Below, one piece after another: positions 6,850 to 21,104 of a stretch of DNA of 48,186 nt (position 1 is its first letter; every line of letters starts with the position of its first letter). The stretch lies in the NCBI GenBank assembly GCA_030591685.1, contig JAUVAX010000016.1:1-48186 (forward strand), in the 5' to 3' direction. Source of the DNA: Pseudobdellovibrionaceae bacterium (GTDB lineage: Bacteria > Bdellovibrionota > Bdellovibrionia > Bdellovibrionales > UBA1609). Under the pieces are notes generated by a model, which was not told the origin of the DNA, searched no databases, and worked only from the letters and a program-made list of their open reading frames with translations. A program made the translations under genes and the position numbers.

Positions 6850-6945
6850 CGGGCTTAAGAGTCGAAGTAAAGTAAAAAACTCTACAACGGGCTACTCATC
6901 TAAACTTAAAGTTAGAAAATTAAATAATAAGCTTAAATCAAAAGC
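6819..6945 (-). ncRNA. Candidate 3'-UTR-derived antisense RNA of fla1
   Basis: Lies between a stop-proximal hairpin and a terminator; 18-nt and 10-nt complementarity to the fla2 leader and 9-nt to the fla2 trailer. Confidence 0.5.
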
Positions 6946-6971
6946 CGGGAGCCAAAGCTGTTGGCCCCCAG
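6940..6971 (-). terminator. Stop-proximal hairpin (weak terminator or processing site) after fla1
   Basis: CTGGGGGCCAA-CAGCT-TTGGCTCCCGG then CTTTT. Confidence 0.6.
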
Positions 6972-6986
6972 TTCTTTAAAATTATA

Positions 6987-7811
6987 CTAAATCAGTCTCA
7001 GTGCGCTTTGTCCGTTTTGGTTAGCACTAGCTAAGACCCCAATGGCTGCGCTTTGTAAAATACTAGCAGATGCGAGCTCAGAGGTTTCGTGAGCAATATC
7101 AGCATCTTGTATTCTCGATTGTGCCGCAGAGAGGTTTTCGTTTTGTATGTCCAGATTACTTACAGTAACTTGTAATCTAGATTGAACAGCACCAAAGTCG
7201 GCTCGCATTTTACTGAGCTTCTCAATGGCGCTATCTACAGCTGAGAGTGTGTCCCTCGACCCGCTTTTATCAGTGATGTCGAGCCCATCAATACCGAGTT
7301 CTCCGGTTGTGGCGTCGGCATTCATCTCATATCTAATAATGTTTTCTTCTCCAGCAAATGGTCCAACATGGTACTCAAGTTCACCACCTGAGCCATTTAA
7401 AAGCTGTTTATTCCCAAACCTTGTGGATTGTGAAATACGCTCAGACTCTTTTATAAGTTGCTGTGCTTCTTGGTTTAAAAATTCTCGTTCTATATTACTG
7501 ACCGTATCACTGGCCCCCTGCACCCCAAGCTCTCTAAGCCTTATCAGGATGTTATTAATTTCATTCAACCCACCCTCACTAACTTGTATCAGTGACTGTG
7601 CGTTGTATGCATTGCTTCGAGCCATTCGGATCCCTTTAACTTGGCCCTTTATATTTTGTGATATCGCAAGGCCGGCGGCATCGTCGGCAGCGTTAACGAT
7701 TCGGCTCCCAGAAGCCAGAGCTGATTGTGCATGCTCTAATCGCCGTTGGTTTTTTGATAATTGCCTTTGTGCATTTATAGATGCTGTGTTTGTATTGATT
7801 CTTAAGCCCAT
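6987..7811 (-). CDS. fliC: Flagellin (fla1), 274 aa
   Basis: MGLRINTN...SGSRIVNAADDAAGLAI...SRIQDADIA; start moved to ATG 7811 after the AGGGGG RBS. Confidence 0.97.
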   Translation of the reverse strand: MGLRINTNTASINAQRQLSKNQRRLEHAQSALASGSRIVNAADDAAGLAISQNIKGQVKGIRMARSNAYNAQSLIQVSEGGLNEINNILIRLRELGVQGASDTVSNIEREFLNQEAQQLIKESERISQSTRFGNKQLLNGSGGELEYHVGPFAGEENIIRYEMNADATTGELGIDGLDITDKSGSRDTLSAVDSAIEKLSKMRADFGAVQSRLQVTVSNLDIQNENLSAAQSRIQDADIAHETSELASASILQSAAIGVLASANQNGQSALRLI

Positions 7812-8150
7812 TGGTAAGCCCCCTAGTAGTATTGTTTTTTGCTCATCCATGTATTTTTCTTGCCACTTAAGACAGAGAGCTTACAAAAAAAGAAGGTTTT
7901 AATTAAAAAAAACTATAGTGGCTATAAAAATAGCACACAGCTTTTTTTAGATTAAAAAACTTCTAGTTATGGGCTTCTTTGCTTAATAGCAAGGACCACG
8001 TCCTAGTCTTTATTAAGTTGTTACTTGGAGACGCTCTAAATTCAAGAGGGGTGACTGACCCTCTTAAAATTTAAAGACTTATTAGAAAGGCTTATTTCAG
8101 TGACTGCTAAAACAAACGTTCTCTTTTAAGGTGCTCCAACATGTTCTGAT
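7812..8150 (-). ncRNA. Long (~340 nt) fla1 5' leader with segments antisense to other flagellin leaders
   Basis: Between the sigma28 promoter and start codon; 15-nt exact complements of fla2 and fla4 leader segments; hairpin 8037..8073 with CAGUCAC loop. Confidence 0.55.
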
Positions 8151-8154
8151 AACC

Positions 8155-8181
8155 TCATCGACCAAGGTCCAGGAAACTTTA
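8155..8181 (-). promoter_or_regulatory. sigma28 promoter of fla1
   Basis: TAAA-N15-GTCGATGA. Confidence 0.85.
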
Positions 8182-8287
8182 GTACTTTGGTCTAGTTTTA
8201 TTTGCCGCAGCGCGTCTAGTCATTGAAATCACAGGAAATAGAAAATAAAAAAACTTATATAAAAAATGAAAAGACTAAAGTCACAAT

Positions 8288-8322
8288 AAATAAAGCCCTT
8301 AAAAGGTTTACTTTTAAGGGCT
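8288..8322 (-). terminator. Intrinsic terminator of fla2
   Basis: AGCCCTTAAAAG-TAAAC-CTTTTAAGGGCT followed by TTATTT. Confidence 0.8.
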
Positions 8323-8350
8323 GTTTTTGTTTTTTTGGGTGCCCGCCCTT

Positions 8351-9178
8351 TTATCCAATAAGCTTTCTGACTAATGTGGGGGCCTGATTGGCCTGTGCTA
8401 AGACGCTTGTAGAGAGCTCTTCAAGGATTCGAGCCCTTGTTAATTGAGCCATTTCACCAGCAACATCCACATCGGCAATAATTGAGCGAGCCTCTGAAAT
8501 GTTTTGGTGTTGAGAGGAAAGAGCGTCGATACTAAATTGAAACCGGCTTTGAGCTGAGCCAAACGTCGCTCGAGCCCTTAAGACCTGACCGAGGGCCCCA
8601 TCTAATTTTTCAATAGAATCTACGGCATCATCTTGGTCTGATATATTGAGGCCATCTATTTCAACCTCACTTGAGGTGGTGTTTGCATCTAGCTTAAATT
8701 TAATAATATTTTCGCTGCCGGCATTTGCCCCAACATGAAACGAAAACTCTTCATTATCGCCAACTAAAAGGTACTTTTGCCCGTACCTTGCCGACCGTGC
8801 AATACGGTCAAACTCCTGATTGAGGGATTGAAACTCCATGTCTAAGAACTCTCGTTCGTCTTTACCGACAGTATCAGAGGCGGCTTGAACGCCAATTTCT
8901 CTCATTCTTAAAAGGACATTGCTTTGCTCATTCAGGCTGCCTTCAGCTGTTTGTATAAAGGCCACGGCACTTTCGGCGTTAAGTTTGGCTTGTTTTAAGC
9001 CACTTATTTGAGACCTAAGGCCTTCGCTAATGGCAAAGCCGGCCACATCGCGACTGCCCTCGCCAACTCGCGAGCCAGAGGCCAGGGATTTTAGAGAGAT
9101 ATTAGTTTGTCTCTGCGATTTGTCCAAAAACCGTTGTGCCGTGAGAGACCCAACGTTTGTATTGATCCGAAAACTCAT
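8351..9178 (-). CDS. fliC: Divergent flagellin (fla2), 275 aa
   Basis: MSFRINTN...FIQTAEGSLNE...IADVDVA...VLAQANQAP; alternative GTG start at 9184. Confidence 0.95.
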   Translation of the reverse strand: MSFRINTNVGSLTAQRFLDKSQRQTNISLKSLASGSRVGEGSRDVAGFAISEGLRSQISGLKQAKLNAESAVAFIQTAEGSLNEQSNVLLRMREIGVQAASDTVGKDEREFLDMEFQSLNQEFDRIARSARYGQKYLLVGDNEEFSFHVGANAGSENIIKFKLDANTTSSEVEIDGLNISDQDDAVDSIEKLDGALGQVLRARATFGSAQSRFQFSIDALSSQHQNISEARSIIADVDVAGEMAQLTRARILEELSTSVLAQANQAPTLVRKLIG

Positions 9179-9269
9179 TTTCACACCCCTATCTTACTTT
9201 TCCTTTCTTAAGCCCTAAAAAAAGAAGAGTAGCCCAGTTGTAGAGATGTTGTTTTAGCAGTCAGGGGGC

Positions 9270-9296
9270 TCTTCGGTGCTGTGCGTCAGAACTTTA
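9270..9296 (-). promoter_or_regulatory. sigma28 promoter of fla2
   Basis: TAAA-N15-ACCGAAGA. Confidence 0.85.
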
Positions 9297-9555
9297 GATA
9301 AAAATAATGCAATACGTTAAGTGCTTGTTATAAAATACCTTTTTAGTAACATTTTTATAAACAGGCTCACCCTCAAGCTTCAGGTAAATGACTCCGTCCC
9401 TAGTTGGTGCTTTTGCAGCCCAGCTTCTGGCCTTCAGGCTTATAAGTCAAAATGAGATTCGCGGGGTCCAAATAAGAGGAGGGGTCGGCGATAAAAAAGT
9501 GGGGGGACAGAACATAAGGAGCTAGAAAGTAAAGGGACTAAAGAGAGAGTGTGCC

Positions 9556-9864
9556 TCAGGCGACCTCATCGTAGTTTTGAGCCTTACGAGTAAGAGTAAA
9601 CTCAAGCTCATCTAATTGAGCATATTTTTTAAGAGCCATTTTTAACTTAAAGTTGTGAGTAAATTTAGATTTATTTCGCTTCACAAACTCATCTAAGCGC
9701 TTTAAGGCCTCTTTAGATTCATCATAATGGGTCTTAACCGGCGGCTCGCCAGGTAAATCAGTATTAATAGGGGCCACTTTAAGGGGGGTGCCTTGAGGGG
9801 TGAGATGCTTGTCAGCCTCTTGGTCCTCCACAACAATAAATGGTTTCATAGCCTTAATTTGCAT
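9556..9864 (-). CDS. Hypothetical 102-aa protein, likely in the sigma28 regulon
   Basis: AGGGG RBS and upstream sigma28 promoter; no recognised domain. Confidence 0.7.
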   Translation of the reverse strand: MQIKAMKPFIVVEDQEADKHLTPQGTPLKVAPINTDLPGEPPVKTHYDESKEALKRLDEFVKRNKSKFTHNFKLKMALKKYAQLDELEFTLTRKAQNYDEVA

Positions 9865-9885
9865 TAAACTACCCCTTGGTCTAGC

Positions 9886-9912
9886 CTATCGGTAGTAAAC
9901 TCAAATACTTAA
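9886..9912 (-). promoter_or_regulatory. sigma28 promoter
   Basis: TTAA-N15-ACCGATAG. Confidence 0.75.
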
Positions 9913-10226
9913 TGCTTCGCGTTACTTATGAGGCAGGCTCCTTGAGTTAAGCCGGGCAAGCTGGCCTAACCCGTCCTAGAGCAGGCAGAAGTGTCCCTGG
10001 CCTTCATAGATTTAGCCCGCGAGGCTCAAATAACAGCCTATAAACAAAGCCTAGCCACAAATTGTCGGTAGTGTGTGTACACACGCAAGGGCGGTAACTC
10101 ATTAATTATACTTAACTTTTCACTTGTGGTAGGGGCAGTTGTTAGTTTTGCCTACAGGGCCCTTACTGAGTGGTCCCAAGTGATTAAAAATCTATTGTAA
10201 TAACAGATAGTTAGCCTGCTTCAATT

Positions 10227-10242
10227 TGGCACATTACGTGCC
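10227..10242 (+). promoter_or_regulatory. sigma54 -24/-12 promoter
   Basis: TGGCAC-ATTAC-GTGC with correct GG-N10-GC spacing. Confidence 0.65.
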
Positions 10243-10275
10243 TTATACATATATATAGGATAAGGAGCAGGCAAA

Positions 10276-11376
10276 ATGAACACTAAAAACACTTTCTACA
10301 TGGTTATCGTATTAATAGGTCTACTGTTTGTGTTTAATTATGGCGGTGGCAAGAACCCTTTTTTAAACGTAAAGGCAACTCAAAAAGTTTTTATGGATTT
10401 TCAAGATGAGGTTGATTTTAAAATCTCTAGGCCGTCCATAAAAATAACTCACCAAAATATGAGGCGCAAAATTCAGCAATTAAAAACGCGTAAGGTTTCG
10501 TTGAGAACAAAAAAACAACAGCTCTCAAAGAAAAAGGCGACTAAGGTTGTAAAAAAGAAAGATAAAAAGAAAAAGAAAAAAACTGAAGCTCAAAAAACTT
10601 TAGCTAACAAAAAAACTGTAAAAGATAAAAAATCACGAGCTAAATTGGAAGACTCTAACGTGCCTAATATCATTAGCTCAGCCCCTAAGGACGATGTAAA
10701 GGAAGCTTCAGAGGAGACAAATGAATGGATCGAAAGGTTTAAACAATTCCCAAATGTAAACACCTTAAAACAGTTTTTATCAGATCATCAGTTGGCTAAT
10801 ATTTCAGATCAGGTTTTTTATGCCGTTGTTGAAAGTTTATTAGAGGGGACAAATATAATTTTAAAAAAACTAGCCCTAACAGCCCTTGATGCTTCGCAAA
10901 CAGTGAGAAGCTTTCATTTACTAGTAGAGAAAGAATCAAGCCCAGAGTTTTTAGAATTAAAAGTAATGATCGAGCAAGCCCTTAATCGATACACCTTTGA
11001 GGGGCGCCTCTTTGTACTAAAGCAAGTTATTGGTAGCTCACAGTCTATTGCCTCTGTCGTTCGAGCAGGAGGTTTACTCTCTGAGCTTGTGAAGAAACTC
11101 ACTCAGGGTCAAAACGAAAAGGGAGAAATTCAAACCTTAGCACTCACAGAGAAGCGACGTAATCAAATGTTGGGCTTGCAGGAATTATTGAACCGAGCTA
11201 TAGGTGATTCGACTAATAATGATGTCAACGAGCAGTTGACAAGCACCTTAAGTGTTATAGAGGGTGTTTTAAAAGACACAACAAAGGTCGCCGAAAACTT
11301 AGATGACGACACTTTCGCCGAAGAGGGCGAGCCGGGTTTAGAAGAGGTTGGTTTGTCCTCTATAAGTACGTTTTAA
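10276..11376 (+). CDS. Hypothetical membrane-anchored protein, Lys-rich linker and helical (HEAT-like) C-terminus
   Basis: TAAGGAG RBS, N-terminal TM segment, KKKDKKKKKK tract. Confidence 0.75.
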   Translation: MNTKNTFYMVIVLIGLLFVFNYGGGKNPFLNVKATQKVFMDFQDEVDFKISRPSIKITHQNMRRKIQQLKTRKVSLRTKKQQLSKKKATKVVKKKDKKKKKKTEAQKTLANKKTVKDKKSRAKLEDSNVPNIISSAPKDDVKEASEETNEWIERFKQFPNVNTLKQFLSDHQLANISDQVFYAVVESLLEGTNIILKKLALTALDASQTVRSFHLLVEKESSPEFLELKVMIEQALNRYTFEGRLFVLKQVIGSSQSIASVVRAGGLLSELVKKLTQGQNEKGEIQTLALTEKRRNQMLGLQELLNRAIGDSTNNDVNEQLTSTLSVIEGVLKDTTKVAENLDDDTFAEEGEPGLEEVGLSSISTF

Positions 11377-11392
11377 TTAAAGGATAGTTTTT

Positions 11393-12511
11393 TTGAAGTT
11401 ATATTTTTATATACTAGCATTAATCTTCAGCTTTATAGGGAGTGCTGAGGCCTCCACGTGTAGACAGGTGTTTTCACCACATAAAATCCAATTAAAAACT
11501 ACTTATCAAAAAAGTGAATTTTTGGGTCAAGTGGCCGAAAACACAGGGAACAAGTCATTAAAAAAAATACGACTCAAAGTAGGTCAAGATCCGGAGCTTA
11601 AAGCTAGGTACAATAAACTTGTTGAAAAAATAGATTTAAACTCAGGGGCCTCAGCGGTTAAATTAGAAGTACTTTCGCAAAAGCTTATAGAGCTTATTAA
11701 GGTAAAAAATGAGGGGTATTTTAGAATCTTAAAAAAGGCGCTCTCGCCAAAGTCAGAGCCCCATGTTAAGGAGCTCGTTAGGCAGCGCCTACTTGTTCTG
11801 ACCCTTTCAAGGGATATTTCTTTAGAGTTAAAAAAATATGGCCTCTATCAAAAAAGCACTTGGCGCACGCGAGCACAAAGAAAACTCAAAAAATACATAC
11901 TACAAAGAAAACTTGTACAAGCCATTTTAATCAATGGCCTCAGTATTCATTTTTTAGGCTGGCCTGTTTATATACCTAATGTTGACTTTATTTCCCATAC
12001 CTACTTTTCACCCTCAGTATTGAAAATGGTCGAAAAGGAGGGCTTTGGGCCCACCTATAAGGATATTAAAAATCAATTTTCATTAAGGGTAGGGGCTCAA
12101 AAAGCCACCCATACAATTACAAAGGTTCTAACAGCAACGTTTTTGGCGACTTACTTGGCTTATTTTTCTTATGGGACTTATAAAGCAGGTAAACTTACTT
12201 ATGGTACCTATGAGATTCTACAAGACGTAGAGTACAGTCATACTTATTTTTTACTCAGCTCAGTACCTAAAGAAAATAAAATTTATGACAGTTGGGCTGA
12301 TCTATTTTATCAAATGAATGCTAGAGAGCCCGATATTAATAACAATCAATTTGACCGTTCTGATTGGAAAACTTACCTAATAGACATAAACACATCTTGG
12401 GCAAGCGCCATAGAGCAAGAGTATGGGCGCAGACCTAATATGAAAGAAAGCCTTGAAGACCGTAAAGCTTGGATAGAGTTTGTAAAAATTCCCTTTGATA
12501 GTGGTTTATAG
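11393..12511 (+). CDS. Hypothetical exported protein with internal hydrophobic segments
   Basis: Signal peptide ...AEA|STCRQVF; 372 aa. Confidence 0.75.
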   Translation: MKLYFYILALIFSFIGSAEASTCRQVFSPHKIQLKTTYQKSEFLGQVAENTGNKSLKKIRLKVGQDPELKARYNKLVEKIDLNSGASAVKLEVLSQKLIELIKVKNEGYFRILKKALSPKSEPHVKELVRQRLLVLTLSRDISLELKKYGLYQKSTWRTRAQRKLKKYILQRKLVQAILINGLSIHFLGWPVYIPNVDFISHTYFSPSVLKMVEKEGFGPTYKDIKNQFSLRVGAQKATHTITKVLTATFLATYLAYFSYGTYKAGKLTYGTYEILQDVEYSHTYFLLSSVPKENKIYDSWADLFYQMNAREPDINNNQFDRSDWKTYLIDINTSWASAIEQEYGRRPNMKESLEDRKAWIEFVKIPFDSGL

Positions 12512-12742
12512 GAGGGGGTTGGGTGTTGCTCGAGCGGGTCCTTTGCCTGCTACAGCTGATCTGCTAAATTGTCTGAGTTGTATAATAAAATCAGCTGAGC
12601 GTTAAGGCCAGTAGTGCACTAGGTGCATAGATCTATAGGTATGTAGAAATTTCACTATTTTGATTTACTAAGGCCAGCAGGCTTTAATTATAGTACTCTC
12701 GGTTAAAGTTTTACTTAGGTAAATACAAATAAAGGGGCTCTT

Positions 12743-14317
12743 ATGCTTATTAGAAATTTAGCATTGATTGTATCGGTGATTATTTGTGTAGGTTCAATTG
12801 TCGAGGCCAATGTGCTTCAGAAAAAATTACCAGAAGCAGATCTATATTCTCAAACTGATGTTGAGGCACTTAGTTTTCAATTTGTACAGGGCTCGCCGCC
12901 GGTTTTTTATAATGTCCCTCCCGGCCAAGTCGACCAAGAGATTTTAATAATAAATGATTTAAAAAAAATAGCCAAAGACGACCATGTCATTCAGTCCATA
13001 GTGGGCAATGAAGTATGGACGCTGCTCCCCCTCAGAGACAAAATACTAAATGAACAAAGATCTAAAGCCTTTGAAACCAGTATTAAGGTAGGTAAAAAAG
13101 TTGTTGGTGAATGGCTGCTTGAGGCGGCAAAACAAAGAGGGTTAGTTAAAAACGATAAAGAGGCCACAGCCCTACTAGAGGCACTAAATATAATTGAAAC
13201 CAAATCAGATGAGGAAATCACGGCCTACATTAATGAACATAAGCTAAAACCAATGCCGACTAAGGCAGACATTATTGATCGTGTTCAGGGAGGGATGGCG
13301 ATTCGTGACTCACAAAATCGAAAAGCTGAGTATGTAACAGAGATAGAGGCGCTTATCCGTGAAATTGACAGCAAAGAAAACACTTTTAAAATGCCCGATA
13401 ATTCAAGTTTTAGCCTTCAGGGTTTATATAAAAATGTAACAACACCTTCGGCATACATATTTACAGCTGGTATAAAGCTACCTAAGTCTAACATGGGTCC
13501 ACAAAATAATATATTCAGTTCGTCTGGTGTCGTTGGGCCTCTTGGTAATCTTTTTGTAAGGTCTGTTCAAATTATTTATAAGCTTTTATCAGGCAACTCA
13601 GTCACTTTTACTTCAATAAATCGCCCATGGGCAAAGCATGTTAGAAATTTAGATACAAATGAAATTACTGTCTCGACCTCTGACCCCTCAACATGGCACT
13701 GGGAGAAATCAGCTCAAGTTTGGGTGCAGATTGATGAGATGTTTAAGAAAAATAAAAAAGCTCCGGTCGCACCTTTTATGGGTCCTTTTTTAGAGGGTAA
13801 AGGTCCAACGCTGCTACCATTCCCCAAATATAGAGTGGGTGGTGGTTTCCTTTGGGCTAGAGACATGAAGACCCTTGCTGAAATAAAAGGTGGGTTTGTT
13901 GGCGGGTCATTTACAGTGACAGCAAAAAACCAAGTGAATAGGTATAAGCCGATTTCAGGTAATGTTAAAGTCGGGGTTGTTCTGCCAATGGAGAATATTA
14001 CATCCGGTAGTATCCCAAAACTTTTTGACTACGTATATGCTATGGCGTTTATTCAAAAAGGAGTTCAAGTTTCAAAGGCCATCAAAGCAACGACTAATGT
14101 TGGGTACATAATGAGCTTGTCAGAAATGTTCAATGCACAGCCTGTTTTTACTCAGCCCTATCCTGTGCAAACTCAACCAGGGAGCGTTGGTACTCCTGGT
14201 AACCCTGGTGGAGGGCCGATTGGTATATTCCCTCAGCCGCGTGATGACTCACGGTTAAACCCACCTATTGGGTTTATGCCGCGAGAGCAAGAGACGATCA
14301 TTTCGCCCCCGAAGTGA
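12743..14317 (+). CDS. Hypothetical secreted protein with Pro/Gly-rich C-terminus
   Basis: Signal peptide ...VEA; 524 aa; AAGGGG RBS. Confidence 0.75.
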   Translation: MLIRNLALIVSVIICVGSIVEANVLQKKLPEADLYSQTDVEALSFQFVQGSPPVFYNVPPGQVDQEILIINDLKKIAKDDHVIQSIVGNEVWTLLPLRDKILNEQRSKAFETSIKVGKKVVGEWLLEAAKQRGLVKNDKEATALLEALNIIETKSDEEITAYINEHKLKPMPTKADIIDRVQGGMAIRDSQNRKAEYVTEIEALIREIDSKENTFKMPDNSSFSLQGLYKNVTTPSAYIFTAGIKLPKSNMGPQNNIFSSSGVVGPLGNLFVRSVQIIYKLLSGNSVTFTSINRPWAKHVRNLDTNEITVSTSDPSTWHWEKSAQVWVQIDEMFKKNKKAPVAPFMGPFLEGKGPTLLPFPKYRVGGGFLWARDMKTLAEIKGGFVGGSFTVTAKNQVNRYKPISGNVKVGVVLPMENITSGSIPKLFDYVYAMAFIQKGVQVSKAIKATTNVGYIMSLSEMFNAQPVFTQPYPVQTQPGSVGTPGNPGGGPIGIFPQPRDDSRLNPPIGFMPREQETIISPPK

Positions 14318-14393
14318 GTATTACTAAGTCATTTATTAAGAGATATAGAGTTTTTTAAGTAAAAAAATAAATTGCGCGTAAAGGTAAAAAAAT

Positions 14394-16850
14394 ATGTTTA
14401 AATTTAAGGTTTTATTGGCGCCTGTTTTGTTAACAATGCTGGCCTCGTTTTCCCACGCGGCACCTAACATGTGTCATCTTCTTTTTAAGGCCTCTTACGA
14501 GGGCTTAACCAAGGCCGATCAATTAAGGTTAGATAATAGTAAAATTAAGATTGATCAAACCATAGATTTGAATTTTGATTTAGATTTTGTAAAAAACGCC
14601 GCAATACCTGAAAAAAAATATAATGAGTATGTCCATAAGTTTTATTACCATAAAAACTTTAACCCTTTAAGTTGGAGTTGGTACACGTTAAATCATTTGG
14701 GCCGTTGGACTTATATGACTTACCGAGGCGCCCCATCGGCTAGTTTTTATCAAAAAGCCCGACAAGACGCCCTATTTTTTGCAAGCCCTGAAATTCGACA
14801 AAAAATGAGTCGATTAAAAGAGGTTGTAGAGGGGTATGTAGAGCAAATTGTAAAAGTTAAAAATGAAATATCTGAACTAGAGTTAGAGGTTGATCATCTC
14901 AAGCAATATATTACCGAAAGCAAAAAAGAAAAAATCTTAGACCTACAGATGCAAATTGAGAGCCAGCGGTTAAAGCTTGAGTCCTATGAAGAAAAGCAAA
15001 AAAATAAAAATGATATTTTAGATAAAATTTCAAAAAATAGTGAGTTTAGAAAATCAAAAACAAGAATAAAAAGGCTGGTTAGGCAACTTAATACTTATGA
15101 CGCTCGAATTAATGAAACAATTAAGCTAGCCACCGCGACTCGATTAAGAGCCTACATGTACTGGAAGGCATTTCTTAGTTCGAGAATATTTTTTTATGAC
15201 AAGGTAAAGTATACACATCTCGTTATTGGCAAAAAAAATACAAGTAACGGAAAGTACTTTGAGGTCGTAGGGGCTCCTAGAGTTAGGGATTACCTTATTC
15301 GAGTCAAGGTCCCCGTGTATAATACTAAACTTAAGCAGTTCGAGTTTGAGGACGAATATTTTAAAACCAAATGGCACTTGTTTCATTCAGCCCGCGTAGA
15401 GCTAAGCAATGCCGTTAGGTATTCAGCCAAGGTCCCTGTTTTAAGTAGCTTGTTTTCGCAGCGTGAGGTTTTAAAACTAGAGAGGCAACAGGCTGAAACT
15501 CGGGGTGAACTTGAGGCTGTATATGTTGTTCTTGAGCGATTGAGATTAAAAAACAAGCTCAACCCAGAGACGACTGAGGAGCTAGATAAAATCGACACAG
15601 CTCTTAGAGAGCATGAGCGTACAGTCAGCCGCAGGGCAAAATTTTGGTTGAGCTCAAAGATATTTTGGGCCGAACACAAAAGCTTTTACAACCGCAGCTA
15701 TAATGCGACAGCACAATTTATTGACAAATACTTTAACCGCGACGGCGGTGCTGAAATTAGTCAAAATGAATTTACAGTACTCCTTAAGGACGCCGGTATT
15801 GCTGAAAAAACGAGAAGTTCTTTGCCAGTTACAGTGATGACCAGAAGCCTCATGGCCGTGCTCTTGAGTTCATCAGGGTATAAGTATCATCAAAACCTCT
15901 TTGAGTACGTACAGAAGTCTTATGACACTATAGATGCTACTGTCATGAATACCGCTTATAGGTATTATGGCGTTGATTTTAATATTAAAGCCATCACTCA
16001 TAAAGACTATAATTCAACAGGTAGCCGCACCGCTGAAGAGAAGTACGGAGCAGCTAGAAATAAACAGTTATACTTAGCCTTTGGGTCTAGGTATAAGAAA
16101 TTTTCAGAGGGAAAGCTAGAAGGCCTATCCTCTGAGGATATAACCACCTATGTAACCGCCGTAAATGAATTTAGAAAAGAGAGGGCGCTATACCTTTTAT
16201 CTAAAAAATTAAAGAGTATTGATGTGAGTAAAGATAAAAGTTTAATTTCTGTTCAATCTAAGTTAGTAGATAAGCTTTCAGAAGTTTCTTTTTTCGAAGC
16301 CGAAGCCATTGTAGAGGCTGCAAAAATAGTGGATAACAACGCATTTTCCCGTGTAGCCGCTGAACTATTGGGTGAAGTAACAAGAAAATACGATAACAAT
16401 AAAGAGATCTCAGACAGGGCGCCTGTCGATTTTGATAGCTATAAGGTCCAGAGATATATACTTAATATACTTCATGCCCTTAATTTAAGTGAAAAAGTAG
16501 ACTTTGCAACAGCACATAAGCTAATAGACGATTTAATGCTTGGAGAGCGAGGTTCAATGACCCTCAGGGCTTTAATCGAGGACAAGTACGAATTTGACAA
16601 TTTTAGGGCTAAAAAATTCTCCTTTCAAACAGAGTACAGCATTGAAAAGAACCTGCTCGAGGCTAGAAAGGCAGAGGTGAGTGTTTACTTTTTTAATAAA
16701 TTTATTAAAGACCATAACGGGGACGCAATAGATATTCTCAGTCGGGCGTTAGAGTTAGAGCAAGAGGCTTATAATCAGTACCTAAATGAAAATCCGGTAT
16801 TAAAGCGTGAAGTTATAAATGATAAGAGGTCTGTAGAGCTTGAGGATTAG
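14394..16850 (+). CDS. Large hypothetical secreted coiled-coil protein
   Basis: Signal peptide ...SHA|APNMCHLLF; 818 aa; heptad-rich region. Confidence 0.78.
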   Translation: MFKFKVLLAPVLLTMLASFSHAAPNMCHLLFKASYEGLTKADQLRLDNSKIKIDQTIDLNFDLDFVKNAAIPEKKYNEYVHKFYYHKNFNPLSWSWYTLNHLGRWTYMTYRGAPSASFYQKARQDALFFASPEIRQKMSRLKEVVEGYVEQIVKVKNEISELELEVDHLKQYITESKKEKILDLQMQIESQRLKLESYEEKQKNKNDILDKISKNSEFRKSKTRIKRLVRQLNTYDARINETIKLATATRLRAYMYWKAFLSSRIFFYDKVKYTHLVIGKKNTSNGKYFEVVGAPRVRDYLIRVKVPVYNTKLKQFEFEDEYFKTKWHLFHSARVELSNAVRYSAKVPVLSSLFSQREVLKLERQQAETRGELEAVYVVLERLRLKNKLNPETTEELDKIDTALREHERTVSRRAKFWLSSKIFWAEHKSFYNRSYNATAQFIDKYFNRDGGAEISQNEFTVLLKDAGIAEKTRSSLPVTVMTRSLMAVLLSSSGYKYHQNLFEYVQKSYDTIDATVMNTAYRYYGVDFNIKAITHKDYNSTGSRTAEEKYGAARNKQLYLAFGSRYKKFSEGKLEGLSSEDITTYVTAVNEFRKERALYLLSKKLKSIDVSKDKSLISVQSKLVDKLSEVSFFEAEAIVEAAKIVDNNAFSRVAAELLGEVTRKYDNNKEISDRAPVDFDSYKVQRYILNILHALNLSEKVDFATAHKLIDDLMLGERGSMTLRALIEDKYEFDNFRAKKFSFQTEYSIEKNLLEARKAEVSVYFFNKFIKDHNGDAIDILSRALELEQEAYNQYLNENPVLKREVINDKRSVELED

Positions 16851-16885
16851 TTTACTATAGTCTTAATATGTTAGTCCTAAAATCT

Positions 16886-16916
16886 AAAGCCCAGTCGAGC
16901 TCGACTGGGCTTTTTT
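16886..16916 (+). terminator. Intrinsic terminator
   Basis: Palindrome AAAGCCCAGTCGAGCTCGACTGGGCTTT followed by T tract. Confidence 0.85.
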
Positions 16917-17022
16917 CTATTTGCCCACAAGTCGATAAAAACTTAGTCGAGTATTCTTTAGTCTGTAGGGGTATAAAGGTCTGTATAATTTTAATTCTAT
17001 AGTCTTGGTTTTTATTTCTTTA

Positions 17023-17093
17023 GTCTAGAATGAGCAACACCTAAATCTAGTTTCACTCGACTGGGCTTAAGCAATGACTAGCCTCGCCGAAGG
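17023..17093 (+). promoter_or_regulatory. sigma28 promoter of fla3 with upstream palindromic box
   Basis: ATCTAG-N5-CTCGAC-N5-TTAA-N15-GCCGAAGG; extra GTCTAG at 17023. Confidence 0.8.
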
Positions 17094-17285
17094 GTAAGTT
17101 GTAAGCGGCACTGGCCTAGACTTAAAAAATGAAGAGAGATTTATAGTTTTAAAAGTAGACATAAACCTCGCTAAAAGTTTTAAGTACAAGGTCTGGTGTA
17201 AAAAATAAACCGTGTCGATAGACACCACAATCTGTAAGTAGCGGTAGGTCGTGAAAGTAAATTGTGAAAAATAAGGAGAACACAC

Positions 17286-18119
17286 ATGGCACTAGTTATA
17301 TCAACAAACATACCCTCAATAAATGCTCAAAAATCAATGAGTCAAACACAAAGAACACTACAAAAAACCATGGCCCAACTTTCATCGGGGTCAAGAATAA
17401 CAAAGGCCGCAGATGATGCCGCAGGCTTATCAATAAGTGAAAACTTAAAGTCTAACATAAGAGGCTACACACAGGCTCGTAGAAACGCCAACGACGGGAT
17501 CTCAATGATTCAAGTGGCTGAGGGTGGCCTTGCTGAGGTTTCAAATATATTAACGAGGCTCAGGGAGCTAGGCGTTCAGGCTGCTTCTGATACGATCGGA
17601 GATACAGAACGTGGATTTGTGAACAAAGAAGTTCAGCAATTAAAAAACGAAGTTCAACGTATTGCTAGTTCGACAAGGTTTAATGGCGCTCAGTTATTAG
17701 ATGGATCTGGGGGCGAGTTTTCCTTTCAGGTAGACATAGGTAATGATGATTTTAAAGATAGAATAACATTTGATACCTCAGAGCAGTCGGTGAACCTTTC
17801 TGATTTAAGTATTGATGGTTTTGATTTTTCATCCAACGATGGAGCCAGAGAGGCCCTAGAGCAACTCGATGCAAGCCAATCACAAGTGAACGGGCATAGA
17901 GCGAATTTAGGAGCCCTACAAAACAGACTCATATCTACAACAGAAAACCTAAGCACAGCAATTGAGAACTTTTCATCTGCAAACTCACGAATCAGAGACA
18001 CAGATGTTGCAGAATCAAGTGCAGCCCTTGCCTCAGCACAAATATTAGCTCAGGCTTCTGTGGGTGTTTTGGCTCAAGCCAATCAAATGCCTCAATCGGC
18101 ACTAAGGCTAATAGCTTAA
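17286..18119 (+). CDS. fliC: Flagellin (fla3)
   Basis: LSSGSRITKAADDAAGLSISE...SRIRDTDVA. Confidence 0.97.
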   Translation: MALVISTNIPSINAQKSMSQTQRTLQKTMAQLSSGSRITKAADDAAGLSISENLKSNIRGYTQARRNANDGISMIQVAEGGLAEVSNILTRLRELGVQAASDTIGDTERGFVNKEVQQLKNEVQRIASSTRFNGAQLLDGSGGEFSFQVDIGNDDFKDRITFDTSEQSVNLSDLSIDGFDFSSNDGAREALEQLDASQSQVNGHRANLGALQNRLISTTENLSTAIENFSSANSRIRDTDVAESSAALASAQILAQASVGVLAQANQMPQSALRLIA

Positions 18120-18179
18120 TAGTAATTATTTATAGATTTTATGTTTGGGGGGTGGTTCTCCGTCCCCGGAACTGACCTA

Positions 18180-18209
18180 CCCGGGGGGCTTGTCTCCCGG
18201 GGTTCTTTT
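18180..18209 (+). terminator. Terminator of fla3
   Basis: CCCGGGGGG-CTTG-TCTCCCGGG then GTTCTTTT. Confidence 0.7.
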
Positions 18210-18602
18210 AGTAAATAATATTATTACTGAAAGAAAGGTAAATGAATGGCTCACATGAGCCTCTAGTTTATAAAACCTCCTAAAGGTAAAAGCTAACTTA
18301 AAATTCACCCCTTTAAAGGTAAAAGTTATAGCTTAAGTCCACCTTTTTACTTCAAAATTAATTTATCACAATGGGTTTAAATATTAAGATAATAAAAATC
18401 TAATTTACCTTAATGCCCTCATTTAATATTGCTTATTTATTTTTGTTATATAGATAGTAGAAGTTAATTGTGTACAGGTAATTAATAACTCAGTGAGGTT
18501 GGGAACTTAATATATATAGACTCCACCAAGTAACAAAACATTAATTAACTTAAAAATATCATTGAAAACATTTTAGTAATTTTGATTTTTCCTAGAAGGG
18601 CC

Positions 18603-18680
18603 ATACGTTAGTCTAGTTAGTCAATACGTTGGTCTAGTTTGCCTAGACTCGACTAAAGTTCACCCAGACTCGACCGAAGT
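18603..18680 (+). promoter_or_regulatory. sigma28 promoter of fla4 with upstream boxes
   Basis: ATACGTTRGTCTAGTT x2 (21-bp period); GTCTAG-N5-CTAGAC-N5-TAAA-N15-ACCGAAGT. Confidence 0.85.
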
Positions 18681-18687
18681 AGTGGTA

Positions 18688-18895
18688 TACAAAGCAGCAG
18701 ACCTTGGACGGTCAGAACTTAGTTAAGCTTTTGAGTGACTGCTTAAGCTTAATTAAAAAAACTAAGTTCATTTCCTCAAGTTTCTTCTGCTCCAACATGT
18801 TCAACCAAGCCTATGATGGGCTGTTCTTGGCGGGCGGTTAGGGTCCGCCAAGAGCAGGGAAGATGGAATCTTTCTTAAAAAACGAGGAGAGTCTA
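18688..18895 (+). ncRNA. Conserved structured 5' leader of fla4
   Basis: Same hairpin order and conserved loops as the fla5 leader, with compensatory stem changes. Confidence 0.7.
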
Positions 18896-19729
18896 ATGTC
18901 ACTCAACATCACAACAAACATAGCGTCTATAAACGCTCAAAAAACAATGGCCACGTCGCAACGAAGTTTAGAAAAGAGTTTTGCTCAACTTTCGTCGGGT
19001 TCAAGAATAACAAAGGCTTCAGATGATGCCGCTGGGTTATCTATAAGCGAAAACTTAAAATCAACAATCAGAGGCTACTATCAGGCCCAACGAAATGCTA
19101 ACGATGGTATTTCAATGATTCAAGTAGCAGAAGGGGGCTTGGCTGAAACCTCTAATATATTAACTCGTTTAAGAGAATTAGGAGTACAAGCCGCGTCAGA
19201 TACAGTTGGTGACACAGAGAGAGGCTTTATTAATCAAGAAGTTCAACAGTTAAAAAGTGAAGTTCAGCGTATTGCCGAATCTACCAGGTATAACGGAACA
19301 AACCTACTTGATGGTAGCGGTGAGGAGTTTTCATTTCAAATAGATATAGGCAATGATGAGTTCAGAGATCGAATTTCATTTGATGCTTCAGCTCAAGAGG
19401 TCACCCTGGGTGCACTTGATATATCTAACTTTGATTATGCTGAAAAAGACGGAGCCAGAGATGCGCTTTCTGTTTTAGAAGATGCTCAAACAAGCGTCAA
19501 CGGGCACAGGGCAACTCTTGGAGCACTTCAGAATCGCCTTATTTCGACTTCAGAGAATTTAAACAATGCTATTGAAAACTTTTCGGCAGCTAACTCTCGA
19601 ATTAGAGATACTGACGTAGCTCAATCTAGCGCCGACTTAGCAAAGGGCCAGGTTTTAAATGCAGCCTCTATTAGTGTCCTGGCTCAGGCCAATCAAATGC
19701 CGCAATCAGCACTTCGCTTAATAGGTTAA
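18896..19729 (+). CDS. fliC: Flagellin (fla4), 277 aa
   Basis: Start moved to ATG 18896 after GAGGAG; MSLNITTNIAS matches fla5. Confidence 0.97.
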   Translation: MSLNITTNIASINAQKTMATSQRSLEKSFAQLSSGSRITKASDDAAGLSISENLKSTIRGYYQAQRNANDGISMIQVAEGGLAETSNILTRLRELGVQAASDTVGDTERGFINQEVQQLKSEVQRIAESTRYNGTNLLDGSGEEFSFQIDIGNDEFRDRISFDASAQEVTLGALDISNFDYAEKDGARDALSVLEDAQTSVNGHRATLGALQNRLISTSENLNNAIENFSAANSRIRDTDVAQSSADLAKGQVLNAASISVLAQANQMPQSALRLIG

Positions 19730-19762
19730 TACTTTAAAAAAAATGATATTAAAGACGTCTAG

Positions 19763-19796
19763 ACCAAGGCCCAGAAACTGGCCTTGGTTTTTTTTT
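19763..19796 (+). terminator. Terminator of fla4
   Basis: ACCAAGGCCCAG-AAA-CTGGCCTTGGT followed by T tract. Confidence 0.85.
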
Positions 19797-19919
19797 GAAC
19801 TTAAATATAGTTAGACATTATTTTTTAAAAACATAACTTCAGTTTATACCTCTGCTTTTAAAATTTACCTTCTATAAATAGTAAAAATATAAATATACCC
19901 TTAAAGCCTATGGACGAAT

Positions 19920-19990
19920 GTCTAGATCAAGTAACACCTTCGTCTAGTTATGCTCGACTCGACTTAAGTTCGCCCGGACTAGACCGAAGG
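19920..19990 (+). promoter_or_regulatory. sigma28 promoter of fla5 with upstream boxes
   Basis: GTCTAG at 19920 and 19942; GTCTAG-N5-CTCGAC-N5-TTAA-N15-ACCGAAGG. Confidence 0.85.
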
Positions 19991-19997
19991 GTTGTTA

Positions 19998-20204
19998 TAA
20001 CAAGCAGCAAGACTTTCGGCGGTCAGACTTTAGTAAGCCTTTATGTGACTGTATCGGTTTAAATAGAGCTAAAGTCAGACAAAGAAAAATTTGCAGCTCT
20101 AACATGTTCAACCCAATCCATGATGGATATCTGACGTGCGGGAGGTTAGGCCCGTTCATTAGGATTAAGAGCAAAGAGGCTCTTAAAAACCAAAGGAGAG
20201 TACT
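19998..20204 (+). ncRNA. Conserved structured 5' leader of fla5
   Basis: Homologous to the fla4 leader. Confidence 0.7.
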
Positions 20205-21038
20205 ATGTCACTCAATATAACAACAAACATAGCGTCTATAAACGCTCAAAAAACAATGGCCACGTCGCAAAGAAATTTAGAAAAGAGCTTTGCTCAACTT
20301 TCGTCGGGTTCAAGAATAACAAAGGCTTCAGATGATGCTGCGGGGCTATCTATAAGCGAAAACTTAAAATCAACAATCAGAGGCTACTATCAAGCACAGC
20401 GTAACGCGAGTGATGGTATTTCAATGATTCAAGTAGCTGAAGGAGGTTTGGCTGAAACCTCTAATATATTAACCCGTTTAAGGGAGCTAGGAGTTCAGGC
20501 CGCATCAGATACCGTTGGCAATACTGAACGAGGATTTATAAATAAAGAAGTTCAGCAGCTAAAAAGTGAGATTCAACGTATTTCTCAAGCAACAAGATAT
20601 AATGGTACAAACCTTTTAGATGGTAGCGGTGAAGAGTTTTCATTTCAGGTAGATATCGGTAATGATGATTTTAGAGATCGAATTTCATTCGATGCATCAG
20701 CACAAGAAAGCACATTAAGTGCTCTTGATGTAGGAAGCTTTGACTATTCAGATAAAGATGGCGCCAGGGAGGCACTTTCAGTTTTAGAGGACGCACAAAC
20801 TACTGTTAACGGTCACCGAGCAACGCTTGGTGCACTTCAAAATCGATTAATTTCAACCTCTGAGAACTTAAATAACGCCATTGAAAATTTCTCGGCGGCC
20901 AATTCTCGAATTAGAGATACAGATGTAGCTCAATCTAGTGCAGATTTAGCAAAGGGACAGGTTTTAAATGCAGCCGCAATTAGTGTTCTTTCGCAGGCCA
21001 ATCAAATGCCACAATCAGCACTTAGATTAATTGGATAA
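20205..21038 (+). CDS. fliC: Flagellin (fla5)
   Basis: Close paralogue of fla4; AAGGAG RBS. Confidence 0.97.
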   Translation: MSLNITTNIASINAQKTMATSQRNLEKSFAQLSSGSRITKASDDAAGLSISENLKSTIRGYYQAQRNASDGISMIQVAEGGLAETSNILTRLRELGVQAASDTVGNTERGFINKEVQQLKSEIQRISQATRYNGTNLLDGSGEEFSFQVDIGNDDFRDRISFDASAQESTLSALDVGSFDYSDKDGAREALSVLEDAQTTVNGHRATLGALQNRLISTSENLNNAIENFSAANSRIRDTDVAQSSADLAKGQVLNAAAISVLSQANQMPQSALRLIG

Positions 21039-21104
21039 TAAATTTTAAGAGTTAAAATTTGGCAGGGGAGAACTCTCCATTCCGGCCAGATCTAACCTAA
21101 CCTA

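Follow-up and report, generated by a model that had tools for sequence, protein, structure and literature searches.

We analyzed a 48,186-nucleotide (nt) stretch of DNA from a Pseudobdellovibrionaceae bacterium (contig JAUVAX010000016.1, hereafter the window), whose genome encodes eight flagellins, three of them outside the window. The mRNA of one of these genes, fla1 (FliC1-type), appears to begin with a conserved, Y-shaped RNA domain of ~123 nt that serves as a base-pairing hub for other flagellin mRNAs. From comparative sequence analysis, we place the probability of this reading at roughly 0.8, and flagellin messages would very probably regulate each other by RNA–RNA pairing. Three contacts are proposed. 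The 5′-terminal 11–14 nt of fla1 (the seed) would pair with a box ~100–115 nt 5′ of the fla4/fla5-type start codon; the loop of hairpin B would kiss a hairpin loop ~50 nt upstream of the fla4-type box; and the loop and 5′ arm of hairpin A would pair with the first 14–20 nt of the fla2-type mRNA. Comparison across genomes shows the three predicted intermolecular duplexes to be conserved, with target complementarity maintained by compensatory change across species. The pairing modules all lie between sigma-28 promoters and flagellin start codons and would occupy untranslated parts of the partner mRNAs, all of which are protein-coding. A sequence-only reading of the window had interpreted the fla1 leader as a trans-acting RNA with several targets, an idea now strongly supported by within-genome covariation at each contact in dozens of Bdellovibrionales genomes.

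Complementary stretches in the window

Seed 1 (GAACATGTTGGAGCA, minus strand 8146..8132) starts 7–8 bases past the fla1 −10 element and is the exact complement of 18788..18802 in the fla4 leader. In fla5, the corresponding stretch (20096..20109) departs from full complementarity by a single C-to-T change that still allows a G-U pair. Directly behind the fla2 promoter, 9263..9249 complements seed 2 (TTGTTTTAGCAGTCA, 8115..8101) at every position. Allowing up to two mismatches, the seed 1 15-mer occurs four times in the 2.66-Mb genome, three of which fall in these flagellin leaders, while the only two occurrences of the seed 2 15-mer are in flagellin leaders. We also scored module-wise duplex energies, as nearest-neighbour estimates, against 300 dinucleotide shuffles of each partner leader. 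No shuffle (0/300 in each case) was as good as the duplex of the seed with the fla4 leader (−26.5 kcal/mol, z −9.3), of the seed with the fla5 leader (−24.0 kcal/mol, z −6.8), or of the hairpin-A stretch with the fla2 leader (−21.9 kcal/mol, z −4.9). Re-read from the window, the strings and coordinates of the sequence-only reading were all correct. Its match of 8146..8132 with the fla4 and fla5 leaders, exact in one and with one G-U pair in the other, exceeds chance by both genome counts and shuffles, and its perfect match of 8115..8101 with the start of the fla2 mRNA withstood the shuffling as well.

In the same module-wise test, neither fla3 nor any of the three flagellins encoded elsewhere in the genome gave a duplex signal. 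The fla3 leader (17040..17285) and the three outside leaders (contigs C85, C93 and C22) carry none of the three partner motifs, so the network includes only some paralogs; all four genes seem to have sigma-28-like promoters. Folding the full 130-nt domain against whole leaders was uninformative (z +1.2 to −1.7), because long sequences always find loop-rich duplexes.

The fla1 partners are separate loci 1.1 to 12 kb away with their own promoters, which is not the arrangement of a cis-encoded antisense RNA. Each flagellin gene has its own sigma-28 promoter, and the genes are separated by terminator-like hairpins. Most genomes carry all these genes on one strand, but in the window and its closest relatives fla4 and fla5 run in the opposite direction to fla1; complementarity is present in both layouts. 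Since fla4 and fla5 lie on the strand opposite fla1 in the window, pairing here must be intermolecular.

Covariation of seed and box

A search with 19 fla1-type proteins supplied 80 fla1-type loci from genomes labeled Bdellovibrionales, Pseudobdellovibrionaceae or similar, Bdellovibrio sp. HCB-110 being the one cultured strain among them. The box GCTCCAACRTGTTC, with up to one mismatch, was found at 20 places in relatives. Twelve of the 20 lie in the sense orientation 100–115 nt 5′ of a flagellin 46–54% identical to fla1, as in fla4 and fla5; a further 4/20 are in fla1-type leaders, and for the other 4/20 the retrieved sequence contained no flagellin gene. The fla4-type leader, used as a profile, matched 52/126 other flagellin upstream regions in the 80 loci.

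Setting each genome's own seed against its own box gave 40 pairs from 39 loci, with 29 distinct combinations. Paired cells numbered 378/406, compared with 355.6 ± 2.7 for shuffled partners, and 0/10000 shuffles scored as high. Across core positions 1–11, 303 cells were Watson–Crick pairs, 15 were G-U, none was A-C and one was of another kind; at least two Watson–Crick pair types occurred at seed positions 1, 2, 4, 5, 6, 7, 8, 9 and 11. Seeds and boxes have diverged together, as in GAATGTATTGGAGC with GCTCCAATACATTC (locus L128), GAACAAAACGGGGA with TCCTCGTTTTGTTC (L084), GAACGCGTTGAAGC with GTTTCAACGCGTTC (L060 and L062) and AGACACATTGGAGC with GCTCCAATGTGTCT (L081). In a genus with six flagellins, the seeds GUUACUUGUUGG, GUAACACGUUGG and GUACACGUUGG each occur with a matching box. 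Seed variants are spread over at least nine separate lineages in a quick tree of the 80 fla1-type proteins, many forks of which are unresolved.

The sequence-only reading had named a protein operator as its main alternative. The 14–15-mers would then be binding sites of one protein at the DNA level, an operator on the AACATGTT palindrome placed 3′ of several flagellin promoters in either orientation. The window core AACATGTT is indeed palindromic, and the same double-stranded motif stands at three promoter-proximal places; conserved, partly palindromic CTAGAC boxes 5′ of the promoters make protein control of the promoters likely in any case. The palindrome, however, is confined to the small clade of the window. 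In most genomes AACACGUU or a very different sequence takes its place, and the cores of most relatives are non-palindromic (AACACGTT, ATGTATT or ACAAAAC). A protein site is expected to be constant, yet seeds as different as GAATGTATTGG or GAACAAAACGG are still matched by their partner. The one-sided mismatches, G-U but never A-C in the core (15 and 0 cells, with one other), are strand-specific and typical of RNA, as expected of pairing between sense transcripts and not of a shared double-stranded DNA site. The hairpin A/fla2 match, moreover, spans 14–20 nt and tracks the stem of an RNA hairpin. We therefore consider the operator explanation very improbable.

Equally little credence goes to an evolutionary leftover, in which an inverted leader duplication or gene conversion between paralogous leaders left complementarity with no function in trans. 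The flagellin genes are paralogs, and the plus strand of the fla1 upstream region resembles a shortened fla4/fla5 leader (TGACTGCT ... GCTCCAACATGTTC). Against this origin, the flanking leader is unalignable while the short modules persist across many genera in two families. The genes share a strand in most genomes, which makes the modules true reverse complements and not copies, and gene conversion predicts identity instead of complementarity that tolerates G-U. Three separate modules with two partner classes would all need to be remnants.

A conserved fold at the start of fla1 mRNA

The conservation that underlies the proposed hub extends over the whole 5′ domain. Using the fla1 upstream region as a BLAST query, noncoding sequence 8255..8040 was matched at 72–78% identity in 22/41 relatives, the matches being split between 14/24 genomes of the same family and 7/16 of other families in the order. 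A leader profile matched 79/80 fla1-ortholog loci and showed the promoter at fixed spacing to the seed in the same fraction; the six-flagellin genus and a second family also have the domain. The conserved elements begin with two upstream boxes, the sigma-28 promoter and GAACAYGUUGGAGC, which starts at the predicted +1, and continue with UUUCAGCAGUCAC, a hairpin with the loop (U)CAGUCAC, and CUCCAAC at ~+115. A strict promoter-plus-seed pattern matched 29/401 genomes of the phylum, a lower bound within the order because diverged seeds are missed; matches outside the order had no promoter context and looked random.

Minimum-free-energy folds of single sequences (first 140 nt) gave the Y shape in 59/61 leaders. 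In this fold, nt 1–6 (GAACAY) form a free 5′ tail, nt ~7–13 pair with CUCCAAC as helix P1, loop A reads CAGUCA and loop B reads UCAGUCAC. The mean unpaired probability over 65 leaders was 0.78 for nt 1–6 and 0.28 for nt 7–14. P1 and hairpin B together were 87.9% paired (alignment A2) versus 77.3% in shuffles, with 0/500 as high, and partners slid out of register gave 50–66%. Compensatory variants of P1 among relatives include GAAG/CUUC, GGAAG/CUUCC and GGGAC/GUCCC. RNAalifold on a MAFFT alignment returned only hairpin B and a weak, non-covarying seed helix; it was set aside because the variable arms were misaligned, and was replaced by single-sequence folds and a hand-set structure. Rfam 15 gave no match in the whole window at gathering thresholds, and at E values up to 1 the region 7780..9300 gave three sub-threshold matches, none over 8025..8147.

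The P1 helix raises the possibility that the seed acts only in cis, serving P1 within the fla1 leader, with the fla4-type box resembling CUCCAAC through an element shared by flagellin leaders. The fla1 leader does carry its own CUCCAAC at ~+115, and P1 is predicted in 59/61 leaders with compensatory changes. Yet P1 takes up only nt ~7–13. The unpaired nt 1–6 (p = 0.78) have no partner in cis and still covary with the box, at positions 1, 2, 4, 5 and 6, and the fla1 cis strand runs on as AACAAA, not RUGUUC. The pairings of hairpin A with the fla2 5′ end and of loop B with the fla4-type loop would also be left unexplained. We regard a cis-only role as highly unlikely and favor trans pairing by a seed that also forms P1.

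No terminator-like site is listed on the minus strand over 7812..8146. A bulged hairpin followed 5 nt on by a T8 run (~7935..7897) is present in this window only and does not appear in the terminator listing; relatives have an A/U-rich linker after P1 and no U-tract. The window's fla1 leader measures 336 nt, ~100 nt longer than usual (about 190–300 nt in most relatives), and the extra A/T-rich part with the hairpin and T8 (~7897..7960, minus strand) could be an attenuator or just an insertion.

Two further features of these leaders were seen. A CUGUGGGC motif in the 3′ part of the leaders is conserved ~60–70 nt 5′ of fla1-type and fla2-type start codons (L056–L135), and the fla1 and fla2 leaders of the window show no obvious copy of it. 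In one clade (L100, L103, L104, L115, L111 and L118), an extra 9–17 nt (GUACGGA...) stand between the predicted start and the seed, which is then not at the extreme 5′ end; in L100, L103, L104 and L115 the insert partly repeats the seed.

Partners of hairpins A and B

The fla2-type gene lies just 5′ of fla1, and its mRNA begins with (G)UGACUGCUGAAAUGAA, which is complementary to hairpin A over the loop and 5′ arm. Across 40 loci, cognate pairs of hairpin A and fla2-type 5′ end averaged −27.15 kcal/mol versus −19.08 kcal/mol for non-cognate pairs, and 0/10000 permutations were as good. The cognate partner was the best of 40 in 18 loci and among the top four in 35. A duplex of 14–20 base pairs starting at the predicted fla2-type 5′ end was found in 39/40 loci. 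Here too the two sides have diverged together (GACUACUG with CAGUAGUC; UGACUAUAAACGACC with GGUCGUUUAUAGUCA), and the match in L133 reaches 18 nt (UUGACUGUUAGACGAGAU).

The 7-nt loop B is fully complementary to the fla4-type hairpin loop in 35/37 pairs, 31 of them CAGUCAC/GUGACUG and 4 CAAUCAC/GUGAUUG, whereas loop A is complementary to that loop in only 19/37. This difference assigns hairpin A to fla2 and hairpin B to fla4/fla5. The assignment modifies the sequence-only reading, in which 8115..8101 served both fla2 and the GUGACUG loops of fla4 and fla5: the fla2 part stands, and comparison gives the loops mainly to 8058..8051, which lies outside the coordinates considered there. That reading contained neither this third module, the hairpin-B loop, nor the cis helix P1. 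In four loci whose leaders have a single CAGUCAC hairpin, the 10 kb upstream contain no flagellin gene, which agrees weakly with the assignment.

In two related genomes (L027 and L028 with L009 and L011), the fla4-type leader has no GUGACUG hairpin and the hairpin B loop reads AAUGGU. The two sides of the kissing contact seem to have been lost together; seed–box pairing is retained with a G-U pair.

Relation to Bdellovibrio bacteriovorus

In B. bacteriovorus, the filament order is FliC3, FliC5, FliC1, FliC2, FliC6, with much FliC1 followed by little FliC2; fliC1 and fliC2 (Bd0604 and Bd0606) form a gene pair, and FliC1 is the only flagellin of 274 amino acids (aa) in Table 1 (PMC2791853). The six-flagellin genus shows a matching arrangement, with a 274-aa fla1-type gene in 41/41 sampled genomes and a 53–58% identical flagellin 1.3–2.1 kb downstream. 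Protein length and gene order make fla1 the probable ortholog of FliC1, and the fla4 type that of FliC2. In this genus, seed–box pairing extends over 11–15 nt in 9/10 counted loci (10 of 30 loci had a correctly placed promoter call and the partner start within the locus), the box lies ~62–69 nt 5′ of the partner, and a GUGACUG loop lies ~115 nt 5′ of the partner flagellin.

The FliA-dependent start of Bd0606 has been mapped 164 nt upstream of the gene, its +1 being 7 nt past the −10 octamer (PMC3627812 supplement), and the Bd0606 promoter string is of the fla4 type. We took our rule for +1, the −10 octamer plus 7 nt, from this mapped start. By this spacing, the predicted fla1 +1 is ~8147, which gives the 336-nt leader and places the seed at +2 to +16, and the predicted fla2 +1 is ~9262, within UGACUG. 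Attack-phase expression, in reads per kilobase per million, was 11984 for Bd0604 and 1932 for Bd0606 (PMC3627812 supplement). The sRNA (small RNA) screen of Karunker 2013 discarded long 5′ untranslated regions (UTRs) (PMC3627812).

Mechanism and opposing evidence

Several points weigh against a fla1 leader that acts as a pairing hub. Seed positions 12–14 pair less regularly and hold 27/28 of the unpaired cells. Because the genomes share ancestry, the shuffle tests treat them as more independent than they are, and the alignments were anchored on the motifs themselves. Taken within a single genome, loop B alone is too short to reach significance (z −1.1 to −1.5). The position of the fla1 start is predicted from promoter spacing, the available start-site table of B. 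bacteriovorus has no row for Bd0604 (PMC3627812 supplement), and two metatranscriptomes of the same study gave 0 RNA contigs over 6900..21100, which is uninformative on expression and ends; the only run found to carry the stretch is a DNA run from a cold-seep metagenome. The equation of fla1 with FliC1 and of the fla4 type with FliC2 rests on length and gene order only. In relatives, no intrinsic terminator was found 3′ of the domain, which leaves release of a short RNA without support. Finally, blocking the box in silico changed the accessibility of the ribosome-binding site (RBS) by −0.004 ± 0.047 in 38 fla4-type leaders, and blocking the seed changed it by +0.023 ± 0.058 in 65 fla1-type leaders. 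With no consistent effect on RBS accessibility, folding gives neither the mechanism nor its sign.

Protein cofactors were also considered. Hfq (PF17209) had no match in the genome, which is scored 100% complete, while control genomes matched; this is not what a Hfq-dependent sRNA would call for. CsrA (C35:69278-69433) and FliW (C35:69697-70050) are encoded in the genome, adjoining each other. The conserved loops CAGUCAC and GUGACUG have no GGA, as a CsrA-type leader motif would, and CsrA/FliW does not account for the complementary modules. GGA elements (AAGGAUU and the Shine–Dalgarno sequence) occur further downstream in fla4-type leaders, and CsrA control may coexist with pairing by acting on these elements nearer the start codon. 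The fla4-type leaders (window 18840..18895) keep a GUAGG-loop hairpin and AAGGAUU before the Shine–Dalgarno sequence as candidate CsrA sites.

In the mechanism that we propose, pairing would nucleate at the loops and the unpaired GAACAY tail, and P1 and the hairpin A stem would then be displaced. Because no Hfq gene was found, pairing may proceed with no requirement for Hfq. With no consistent predicted effect at the RBS, an effect on stability or processing is favored over a translational switch: the long duplexes would alter mRNA fate, by RNase III-type cleavage or 5′-end protection, and not RBS access. Altered mRNA fate could in turn set the relative amounts or timing of flagellins in the filament. 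As for the sign, that the abundant fla1 leader represses the fla4/fla5-type (FliC2-like) messages is a guess to which we give somewhat less than even odds. A broader proposal, that the FliC1-type leader organizes the multi-flagellin filament post-transcriptionally, with one-to-one pairing to the fla2-type and FliC2-type messages setting flagellin order and ratio, and direct mRNA–mRNA contacts programming the FliC1 block and the small FliC2 block after it in a Hfq-free network found across the order, is tentative, and we lean against it at present. A separate candidate, in which the CUCC of the fla4-type box masks the Shine–Dalgarno sequence, was rejected, as many genomes have CACC boxes and box blocking had no predicted effect on the RBS.

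The same duplexes could also operate with reverse or mutual logic. The fla2- and fla4-type leaders would open P1 and hairpin A and so alter fla1 translation or decay, or the duplexes would tether flagellin mRNAs to one another for joint localization, with no single RNA in the role of regulator. Pairing is inherently symmetrical, opening P1 frees the conserved fla1 element CUCCAACAAA, and blocking the seed in silico slightly raises fla1 RBS accessibility in 29/65 leaders and lowers it in 9, although the mean effect is small (+0.023 ± 0.058). In C. jejuni (Campylobacter jejuni), a flagellin mRNA is reported to show translation-dependent polar localization (PMC4894983). If the proposed orthology holds, however, the fliC1 message exceeds fliC2 ~6-fold in attack phase, which fits a regulator in excess, and three modules for two partner classes on one RNA have the look of a hub. 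We judge reverse or mutual logic rather unlikely, though far better placed than the operator, leftover or cis-only explanations, and continue to prefer fla1 as the regulating partner.

Relation to known systems

In Listeria monocytogenes, the untranslated part of one mRNA of the hly/prsA2 pair reportedly pairs in trans with a message of the same module and couples their expression with no dedicated sRNA gene. The fla1 leader differs from the hly–prsA2 mRNA–mRNA interaction (PMC8722363) in having three modules and two partner classes, in partners that are paralogs of the regulator's own gene, and in contacts that include loop–loop kissing and pairing at the extreme 5′ end; its evidence is comparative, not experimental. 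Like UhpU, MotR, FliX and FlgO, the sigma-28-dependent UTR-derived sRNAs of E. coli, it would be a base-pairing RNA from a FliA-controlled flagellar UTR with a part in post-transcriptional tuning (PMC10578931). Unlike them, it comes from a genome with no Hfq gene found, has 11–20 nt of complementarity and targets sister flagellin leaders; neither sequence nor Rfam relates it to them. The E. coli RNAs are said to be Hfq-bound released fragments with short seeds and many non-flagellin targets.

Base-pairing control within the flagellar hierarchy of a multi-flagellin polar flagellate with CsrA–FliW is shared with the CJnc230 and CJnc170 sRNAs of C. jejuni (PMC11187230). These are reported to be separate sRNAs outside the flagellin mRNAs, unlike the fla1 leader, and their targets and sequences are unrelated. 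The dual-function flaA mRNA of the C. jejuni CsrA–FliW network (PMC4894983) offers a flagellin leader that itself regulates other flagellar messages, and CsrA and FliW genes are present here too. The conserved features here, in contrast to flaA, are complementary RNA stretches, with CAGUCAC loops that have no GGA. The flaA leader reportedly titrates CsrA protein through GGA motifs.

Several antisense systems begin with loop contacts, among them CopA/CopT, RNAI/RNAII and OxyS-fhlA, while FasX-ska pairs with the extreme 5′ end of an mRNA. The likeness to CopA/CopT-type and FasX-ska systems lies in loops of 6–8 nt that nucleate and extend into a stem and in two separated contacts on one target; as with FasX-ska, a duplex at the extreme 5′ end can affect how stable the mRNA is. 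The plasmid antisense systems are cis-encoded, and OxyS-fhlA and FasX-ska involve dedicated sRNAs. To our knowledge, none of the four links mRNAs of paralogous structural proteins.

Our literature search found no published description of pairing between flagellin leaders. Leader-embedded regulatory RNAs, mRNA–mRNA pairing and sigma-28 UTR-derived sRNAs are already known (PMC8722363, PMC10578931, PMC11187230, PMC4894983); what appears to be new is the proposed order-wide hub, in which three modules of a single flagellin leader pair with the leaders of its paralogs, and which was found neither in our literature search nor in Rfam. The placement of segments in multi-flagellin filaments is an old open question, for which covarying leader duplexes offer a specific hypothesis open to mutational testing. 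For B. bacteriovorus the flagellin order is known (PMC2791853), but not the control behind it. The six-flagellin genus, which carries the same modules, has cultured, genetically tractable members. If confirmed, the pairing would clearly exemplify regulatory cross-talk among mRNAs of paralogs, and would be an instance of multi-site, kissing-loop-assisted pairing in a lineage with no Hfq, and the domain would be a new, widely conserved structured RNA, absent from Rfam and open to modeling and annotation.

Features of the window and minor observations

Coordinates of the modules, their partners, and the associated genes and promoters are collected in Table 1. The conserved boxes upstream of the fla1 promoter are possibly a transcription-factor site.

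Table 1. Predicted RNA modules, partner elements, promoters and flagellin genes in the window
Feature	Position	Strand	Remarks
fla1 coding sequence	6987..7811	−	274-aa flagellin
Conserved 5′ domain of fla1 leader	8025..8147	−	~123 nt; free tail, P1, hairpins A and B, three-way junction
P1 3′ strand CUCCAA	8025..8030	−	predicted cis pairing with UUGGAG of the seed
Module 3, hairpin B	8034..8076	−	loop UCAGUCAC at 8058..8051, complementary to fla4/fla5 GUGACUG loops
Module 2, hairpin A	8090..8117	−	loop CAGUCA at 8106..8101; 5′ arm and loop 8115..8101 complementary to first 15 nt of fla2 mRNA
Module 1, 5′ seed GAACAUGUUGGAGCA	8132..8146	−	complementary to fla4/fla5 boxes; nt 1–6 unpaired toehold; nt 8–13 are P1 5′ strand
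fla1 sigma-28 (FliA)-type promoter	8155..8181	−	−35 TAAAGTTT 8181..8174; −10 GTCGATGA 8162..8155; read from sequence
Boxes ACTAGACGCGCTGCG ... AACTAGACC, 5′ of fla1 promoter	8185..8220	−	conserved in alignment
fla2 coding sequence	8351..9178	−	flagellin
fla2 sigma-28 promoter and mRNA 5′ end	9249..9296	−	−35 9296..9289; −10 9277..9270
fla2 mRNA 5′ end UGACUGCUAAAACAA	9263..9249	−	hairpin A partner
fla4 sigma-28 promoter	18654..18680	+	−35 18654..18661; −10 18673..18680
fla4 leader hairpin loop GUGACUG	18735..18741	+	putative kissing partner of hairpin-B loop
fla4 leader box UGCUCCAACAUGUUC	18788..18802	+	~107 nt 5′ of start codon; seed partner
fla4 coding sequence	18896..19729	+	277-aa flagellin
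fla5 sigma-28 promoter	19964..19990	+	−35 19964..19971; −10 19983..19990
fla5 leader hairpin loop GUGACUG	20045..20051	+	hairpin-B loop partner
fla5 leader box GCUCUAACAUGUUC	20096..20109	+	one G-U pair with the seed
fla5 coding sequence	20205..21038	+	277-aa flagellin

Boxes of the CTAGAC type, partly inverted repeats (GGTCTAGTTT ... CTAGAC), stand just 5′ of the −35 element of fla1 (8185..8220, minus strand), fla4 (18604..18650, plus strand) and fla5 (19925..19962, plus strand). They are kept in the fla1, fla4 and fla5 orthologs and may represent a shared transcription-factor site. A strain-variant DNA contig covering 18603..18974 has 18 differing positions and one deletion. The listed differences all lie outside the GUGACUG loop (18735..18741) and the box (18788..18802), those at 18771 and 18808 coming closest.

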